Assembly: GCF_003334785.1 (NCBI RefSeq)
Contig: NZ_QOWV01000013.1
Length of the DNA stretch: 64,000 bases
Direction: 5' to 3' (one strand)
DNA from: Escherichia coli
GTDB taxonomy: Bacteria; Pseudomonadota; Gammaproteobacteria; Enterobacterales; Enterobacteriaceae
Under the pieces are notes generated by a model. The model worked only from the letters and a program-made list of their open reading frames with translations, ran no database searches and was not told the origin of the DNA. Shown here piece by piece: positions 60,498-61,417 of the stretch (its first letter is position 1; every line of letters starts with the position of its first letter). Both the position numbers and the translations under genes were made by a program.

Positions 60498-61301
60498 ATG
60501 GCAGCAATCGCGTTTATCGGTTTAGGACAAATGGGTTCGCCAATGGCGAGCAATTTATTGCAGCAAGGGCATCAACTTCGCGTCTTTGATGTGAACGCCG
60601 AAGCTGTGCGGCATCTGGTAGACAAAGGTGCGACTCCCGCCGCCAACCCGGCGCAGGCCGCTAAAGATGCCGAATTTATCATTACCATGTTGCCGAATGG
60701 CGATCTGGTGCGCAACGTGTTGTTCGGTGAAAACGGCGTTTGCGAAGGCTTATCTACCGATGCGCTGGTCATTGATATGTCCACCATCCATCCGCTGCAA
60801 ACCGATAAATTGATTGCCGATATGCAAGCCAAAGGCTTCAGCATGATGGATGTTCCGGTAGGCCGTACTTCTGCAAATGCCATTACCGGTACTCTGTTAC
60901 TGCTGGCTGGCGGCACCGCTGAACAAGTTGAACGTGCCACACCGATCCTGATGGCGATGGGCAGTGAGTTGATCAACGCTGGCGGTCCGGGCATGGGGAT
61001 CCGCGTTAAGCTCATCAACAACTACATGAGCATCGCGCTCAATGCGCTTTCGGCAGAAGCCGCCGTTTTGTGCGAAGCCCTGAATCTTCCCTTCGATGTT
61101 GCCGTCAAAGTGATGAGCGGTACCGCCGCCGGTAAAGGTCACTTCACCACTTCCTGGCCAAACAAAGTCCTCAGCGGAGATCTTTCTCCCGCCTTCATGA
61201 TCGATCTTGCCCATAAGGATCTTGGCATCGCCCTTGATGTCGCCAACCAGCTGCATGTGCCAATGCCGCTGGGGGCCGCCTCACGGGAGGTTTATAGCTA
61301 G
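60498..61301 (+). CDS. yihU: 3-sulfolactaldehyde reductase YihU (beta-hydroxyacid dehydrogenase family), truncated by an in-frame TAG; frame stays open a further 31 codons to about 61394
   Basis: ORF track 267 codons ending ...AASREVYS then TAG; same-frame continuation [30 protein letters not shown] then TAA; N-terminal Rossmann motif GLGQMG. Confidence 0.85.
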
Positions 61302-61417
61302 GCGCGCGCAGCGGGTCGCGGTCGCCAGGACTGGTCCGCCATTCTGGAACAGGTCCGTGTCAGTGCCGGGATGACTGCCAAAGTAAAAATGTAACGACTG
61401 GATAAAGGAATAAATGA

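Follow-up and report, generated by a model that had tools for sequence, protein, structure and literature searches.

The yihU gene in the 64-kb stretch of Escherichia coli DNA analysed here (hereafter the window) ends at an in-frame TAG codon, 31 codons early. [quoted passage not shown] YihU reduces sulfolactaldehyde to DHPS, with NADH as the reductant (PMC9594981, PMC12890257). We consider it highly probable that the TAG is an inherited Q268amber mutation that arose by deamination at a Dcm site, and that yihU is now a pseudogene in this lineage.

The yihU gene and its amber codon

We searched complete E. coli genomes by megablast with positions 60498-61394 of the window. The gene is present in a single copy in 4,026 of 5,426 genomes, and its annotation is always yihU, sulfolactaldehyde 3-reductase. 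The repaired 298-residue protein matches PDB chain 6SM7_A ('3-sulfolactaldehyde reductase') at every position from 1 to 298, and likewise 6SMY and 6SMZ. By orthology to the characterised K-12 gene, the window gene is yihU, coding for the YihU/SquU 3-sulfolactaldehyde reductase of the beta-hydroxyacid dehydrogenase family. Its surroundings are those of MG1655: csqR-yihV are divergent from yihU-yihT-yihS, with the same gene order and lengths.

The yihU open reading frame of the window (60498-61301, plus strand) starts with ATG and comprises 267 codons plus a TAG at 61299-61301. BLAST against MG1655 indicated that it encodes YihU residues 1-267, with the C-terminus ...AASREVYS. Downstream of the TAG and in the same frame lies the orphaned 3' end of the gene (61302-61394, plus strand), i.e. 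30 sense codons corresponding to A269-M298, followed by the native TAA at 61392-61394. This assignment relies on the sequence, on Pfam and on the alignment of homologues. A base-by-base comparison with the MG1655 record NZ_CP032667.1 revealed a single difference in the coding sequence, T in the window vs C at 61299; megablast and the base-by-base comparison thus gave 896 equal bases out of 897 (99.9% identity). Codon 268, TAG in the window, reads CAG (Gln) in MG1655, as it does in about 4010 other complete genomes.

An initial annotation, made from the window sequence alone, had proposed a single CAG-to-TAG change that removes the last 31 codons of a 298-residue protein, and it had suggested aligning the gene with MG1655 and other E. 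coli genomes as a check. That alignment bears the proposal out: the lone C-to-T change at 61299 falls in codon 268, which the reference yihU reads through as CAG, residues Q268-M298 are missing from the product of the open reading frame, and the reference gene and chain 6SM7_A agree on 298 residues. Its arithmetic (266 + 1 + 31) has two figures off by one, the correct sum being 267 + 1 + 30 = 298. The same annotation had called yihU the one clear lesion in the window. To check the integrity of coding sequences, we transferred the coordinates of 61 of them from the annotated MG1655 record, and here too it was right: all 60 others (60/60) are full length, and yihU alone has an unexpected in-frame stop codon.

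The fdoG gene (48247-51297) contains an in-frame TGA at codon 196, which is its normal selenocysteine codon and not a lesion. Its SECIS element was found by Rfam at 48829-48887 (SECIS_3 match, 84 bits). This gene is called fdnG by PGAP in the relatives of the window.

The next gene of the yihUTS operon, yihT, coding for sulfofructose-phosphate aldolase (61418-62296, plus strand, by coordinates transferred from MG1655), is intact. Its ATG at 61418 is located 116 nt past the new stop codon, vs 23 nt past the native TAA. Rfam searches found no RNA element at the yihU locus. Between the TAG and yihT we found no terminator-like site, the untranslated stretch spans just those 116 nt, and yihT retains its own Shine-Dalgarno sequence (AAGGA, 7 nt ahead of the ATG). 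We therefore rejected Rho- or terminator-mediated polarity on yihT and expect only small polar effects on yihT and yihS.

Inheritance of the TAG in a K-12-like lineage

BLAST and an indel-aware scan showed 15 SNPs and one repeat-number difference between the window and MG1655 over the whole 64 kb. By this comparison the window is natural sequence, closely related to K-12 but not K-12 itself, and a recoded or RF1-free host was rejected on the same grounds. We found no complete genome identical to the window, the best 25-kb megablast matches scoring slightly below perfect. The nearest complete relative is LR-64-2, with 7 SNPs over the 62 kb that were compared.

A 61-bp probe centred on the TAG was used to seek exact matches in the 4,018 complete genomes with yihU. 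It matched eight of them exactly, and every other genome has at least one mismatch. In all eight carriers, the PGAP annotation of RefSeq describes yihU as a pseudogene with an 'internal stop'. Seven of them, FDAARGOS_1248, JKHS016, LR-64-2, 200112, AST198, 364_BP0073 and E423, are independent complete assemblies; two originate from Japan and one each from the USA, Ecuador, Mali, Cambodia and China. Each is 1-4 SNPs away from the window across 22.7 kb, and their yihU genes, including the TAG, are 100% identical to that of the window over 897 bp. Carriers of the TAG make up about 0.2% of the complete genomes with yihU.

The TAG is linked to neighbouring changes in the spacer between yihV and yihU. 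All seven carriers have G60429 and T60445, and this pairing is absent from every CAG genome examined. The window's 98-bp spacer segment was found exactly in five of the seven carriers and in no other complete genome, the remaining two carriers having one additional SNP. Among the complete genomes and fetched loci, the TAG occurs solely alongside G60429, with the exception of the eighth carrier, OkiPb01695. Partial haplotypes were also found: NRZ101541 has G60429 with CAG, TW10573 has T60445 alone, also with CAG, and a metagenome scaffold combines G60429 and the TAG, yet has C at 60445. These haplotypes fit a stepwise descent A60429G, then TAG, then C60445T.

The allele is not limited to complete genomes. 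In a collection of about 15 billion proteins, the exact 267-aa product was found on 707 contigs (NCBI, ENA, Logan) in 1,020 index blocks, and NCBI accessions exist for it, among them one for E. coli HVH 209. The yihU TAG is thus already catalogued, as a RefSeq pseudogene and as a 267-aa protein entry, and its mechanism is a textbook one.

The initial annotation had left room for a base-calling error at 61299. Methylated Dcm motifs are a known source of systematic nanopore consensus errors, and the mutated site is such a motif. In addition, one public carrier, OkiPb01695 (NZ_AP042570.1), appears to be exactly this kind of artefact. Its yihU gene differs at 13 further positions, and its yih genes have three 'internal stops' (yihV Q213, yihU Q268 and yihQ W639; 18166-26337 of the fetched locus), all three of them at CCWGG motifs. 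CTAGG/CCTAG motifs number 5 per 40 kb in OkiPb01695 vs 0-1 in the other genomes, and another of the Dcm sites in its yihU carries a G-to-C transversion at the methylated base. The stop codons of OkiPb01695 look like methylation-linked consensus errors, which makes its 'pseudogenes' suspect; errors of this kind are associated with nanopore assemblies. On account of the CCWGG stops, the motif excess and the transversion, we rejected OkiPb01695 as a second, independent origin of the TAG, as it is a probable artefact. The allele thus has a single secure origin among the genomes compared, which does not by itself give direct population evidence of a hotspot at this site.

The hallmark of such artefacts, that they disregard phylogeny and come with other changes at the same motif, was seen in OkiPb01695 only. 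In contrast, the seven other carriers, assembled independently in six countries, have no comparable excess of CTAGG/CCTAG over 40 kb. Apart from OkiPb01695, the TAG tracks G60429, and the G60429-T60445 pair occurs solely with the TAG. The 707 contigs with the exact truncated protein come from many sources. A base-calling error caused by the motif would not segregate with a lineage; we therefore take the TAG to be real in the lineage of the window, and an artefact of the window's own assembly is extremely improbable. By these genome comparisons, yihU Q268amber is a genuine, vertically inherited and rare nonsense allele in a K-12-like E. coli lineage. A caution follows for public assemblies: TAG codons at CCWGG motifs can be real, as in this lineage, or methylation-linked errors, as in OkiPb01695, and linkage to adjacent private SNPs separates the former from the latter.

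Elsewhere in the window, some differences set it apart from its relatives. It matches none of the seven carriers exactly, with private bases at 55133, 695 and 2660 and two fewer 92-bp units between rhaA and rhaD. The C at 55133, in the yiiE-fabY intergenic region, is private to the window, where 8/8 compared genomes have T; its T695 and A2660 occur in neither MG1655 nor LR-64-2, the two genomes examined at those positions. The rhaA-rhaD spacer (39535-39759) harbours a REP/BIME-type repeat with 2.4 copies of the 92-bp unit, vs 4.4 in NZ_CP032667.1 and LR-64-2; two Rfam naRNA4 matches fall within it (39588-39658 and 39680-39750). Relative to the MG1655 record and LR-64-2, the window lacks 184 bp at this repeat, which may be true copy-number variation or a collapsed assembly repeat. 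The TAG carriers stand low in the 25-kb ranking solely through their two more repeat units. SNPs between the window and MG1655 are also found at 22097, 33945, 36046 and 36955, in yiiQ, rhaT, rhaS and rhaB, respectively. LR-64-2 shares the bases of the window at these four positions, and its protein accessions differ from those of MG1655, so these are amino-acid differences. The change at 36955 turns CCTGG (MG1655) into CCAGG, which preserves the Dcm site.

Origin of the mutation and the yihV-yihU spacer

The mutated codon overlaps a Dcm site (61298-61302) that reads CTAGG in the window vs CCAGG in MG1655, the context being AGCTAGGCG in the former and AGCCAGGCG in the latter. Position 61299 corresponds to the inner C of CCAGG, the base that Dcm methylates. 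This context had gone unmentioned in the initial annotation. The yihU gene has three CCWGG sites, each able to yield an amber codon (W220, Q268 and Q277). 5-Methylcytosine deaminates directly to thymine. This is the classical explanation for the amber hotspots of lacI (Coulondre and Miller 1978), CAG-to-TAG changes at the second C of Dcm CCAGG sites (reviewed in PMC12606429), and very-short-patch repair by Vsr acts against the resulting T:G mismatch (PMC2715241). In LR-64-2, both dcm (WP_001157246.1) and vsr (WP_000786004.1) are intact. We infer that the TAG most likely arose by spontaneous deamination of the 5-methylcytosine at the inner position of the Dcm site, C-5mC-AGG becoming CTAGG, an origin that is well supported by the sequence context. 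The deaminated site would then have escaped very-short-patch repair.

The window, the seven carriers and MG1655 together show 26 segregating SNP sites, on which the spectrum of substitutions was analysed. Of these 26 sites, 3 are transitions at methylated CCWGG positions vs 0.53% expected (binomial P = 3.6e-4), one of the three being a singleton found in one assembly. The three sites are 61299, 47532 (two assemblies) and 32943 (LR-64-2 only). The change at 47532, CCAGG to CCAAG, is silent (fdhD A174A) and present in FDAARGOS_1248 and 200112. That at 32943, CCAGG to CTAGG, is located inside sodA of LR-64-2 and is also silent, the SodA protein accession being the same. The sole other CTAGG in the window, at 20159, is native and present in MG1655 and LR-64-2 as well.

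The yihV-yihU spacer (60331-60497) contains the divergent promoters and the CsqR operator, together with G60429 and T60445. Transcription starts of yihU have been mapped at -15 to -92 from its ATG (PMC5816610). Four of the 26 segregating sites (C60427A, A60429G, C60445T and C60477A) fall within 51 bp of this spacer, and the SNPs at 60427-60477 lie among the published transcription starts. A60429G abolishes a GATC and turns a -10-like TACGAT, 6-7 nt upstream of the yihU start mapped at -62/-63, into TACGGT. The difference at 60477 is apparently derived in K-12 and not in the TAG lineage. This clustering of SNPs could reflect low constraint on the spacer or selection on regulation.

The clustering raises the question of whether the TAG was itself selected, in a stepwise shutdown or rewiring of yihU by A60429G, C60445T and a nonsense codon, all within 871 bp in a lineage otherwise near-identical to K-12. 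The segment 60429-61299 alone holds 4 of the 15 differences between the window and MG1655 in 64 kb. Together with the four segregating sites in 51 bp, the existence of partial haplotypes, the position of the SNPs among the mapped starts and the spread of the TAG lineage over several continents, this speaks for selection. However, constraint on intergenic DNA is generally weaker, and this spacer varies among E. coli genomes; one of the four differences, at 60477, belongs outside the TAG lineage if derived in K-12, as it appears to be; and the carriers make up only a very small part of the complete genomes with yihU.

Changes that followed the TAG elsewhere in the SQ cassette were also considered. 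They comprise three nonsynonymous substitutions, yihQ T161I and yihP I249N (FDAARGOS_1248 and 200112) and yihP G305S (AST198), and one synonymous change in ompL. The yihQ and yihP changes correspond to window coordinates 65274, 67620 and 67787, beyond the end of the window. This pattern resembles relaxed constraint more than selection and hints at such relaxation on the remaining SQ pathway, with numbers too small to test. All in all, we regard selection of the TAG as unlikely. Even less probable is a bolder variant, in which the CCAGG/CTAGG alternative at codon 268 and the variable promoter spacer would form a selected, possibly reversible switch of sulfolactaldehyde reduction in a commensal lineage with a global distribution: yihU would be switched off by deamination and could be switched on again by a Vsr-stimulated change of CTAGG to CCAGG, and the spacer SNPs would retune its expression. 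We see very little likelihood in this scenario.

Probable consequences for YihU and sulfoglycolysis

To judge what residues 268-298 contribute, we used Pfam boundaries and alignment to solved homologues. In repaired YihU, Pfam identifies an NAD_binding_2 domain at residues 4-160 and an NAD_binding_11 domain at residues 165-284. This two-domain architecture is incomplete in the window, where the open reading frame ends at residue 267, with ~17 residues of NAD_binding_11 and the tail gone. All of the PDB homologues (17/17 with E <= 1e-30) align beyond residue 274. In the four closest solved homologues, residues 268-287 align to the motif A-x-x-x-G-x-G-x-x-D-x-S-A-[VIL]. The alignment shows that the G-x-G-x-x-D-x-S-A segment lost by truncation is conserved in the fold.

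Translation of the TAG allele would halt 31 codons early, with the Rossmann domain and the catalytic motifs kept. The last part of the all-helical C-terminal domain would be missing, and the product is probably misfolded or inactive. The region of the catalytic Lys171 and the substrate-binding loop, which we take to lie upstream of residue 268, as do presumably all catalytic and cofactor motifs, would be retained. Because they precede the stop codon, loss of function would proceed via folding or assembly rather than via lost catalytic residues. With those motifs all retained, YihU 1-267 may conceivably have some residual activity.

A yihU deletion mutant does not grow on sulfoquinovose under fermentative conditions, and it grows on glucose (PMC6278857). 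Because the truncation removes a conserved C-terminal segment and the deletion mutant fails on sulfoquinovose, sulfoglycolysis is likely lost in the TAG lineage. The cells would form sulfolactaldehyde from sulfoquinovose without reducing it to DHPS.

The stop codon could also be real and of small consequence, if the 267-aa protein were still an active sulfolactaldehyde reductase or if UAG were read through adequately. The Rossmann domain and most of the C-terminal domain are indeed retained, and the rest of the SQ cassette is intact save for the few missense changes in some carriers. However, the lost segment comprises the end of a Pfam domain and the motif conserved in the four solved homologues, and no solved homologue stops so early. 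As to read-through, the Gln inserted by a glnV-type suppressor would give back the exact wild-type protein, and the initial annotation had made its prediction conditional on the lack of an amber suppressor. No tRNA gene was found in the 64-kb window. The tRNA-Gln anticodons of LR-64-2 are TTG, TTG, CTG and CTG, with wild-type CTG in both glnV and glnX, and LR-64-2 has no supE. A supE44-type glnV probe matched 155 records exactly; among the 60 of these 155 that were listed are many standard laboratory strains of K-12, and no TAG carrier appears among those 60. We regard an inconsequential stop codon as quite improbable.

If yihU is inactive, as we favour, the carriers are probably unable to complete sulfoglycolysis and would provide no DHPS from dietary sulfoquinovose to sulfite-respiring gut bacteria. 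The relevance of this loss is limited to strain-level metabolic modelling, with little import beyond the strain itself. The yihU TAG is also a clean case, from nature, of the textbook amber hotspot at Dcm sites.

The allele can be compared with several known systems. Like the amber hotspots of lacI, it involves CCAGG, the same inner, 5-methylated C and the same change of CAG (Gln) to TAG that leaves CTAGG. The genetic setting is also similar, dcm and vsr being present, as seen here in the nearest relative LR-64-2. Unlike those hotspots, which come from a laboratory mutant spectrum, the yihU TAG occurs naturally and is fixed in a lineage from the wild. Like the K-12 yihU deletion mutant of the Keio collection, the TAG allele lacks a full-length sulfolactaldehyde reductase. 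In the Keio mutant the whole gene is gone, whereas the TAG allele can still make 90% of YihU, and its phenotype could be milder.

A further comparison is with natural variation of the cassette itself. As described in the main text of a 2025 survey of yih cassette diversity (PMC12608037), the cassette has long and short forms. A term search of that main text for pseudogenes, stop codons and nonsense mutations gave no hit. Like the short-cassette yihTUVW strains described there, e.g. Nissle 1917, the TAG lineage illustrates natural variation in the sulfoglycolysis capacity of E. coli. In contrast with the short cassette, a structural variant that, according to the same text, is devoid of ompL-yihOPQRS, the long cassette of the K-12 type is present in the window's lineage and its relatives, where it is affected by one point lesion.
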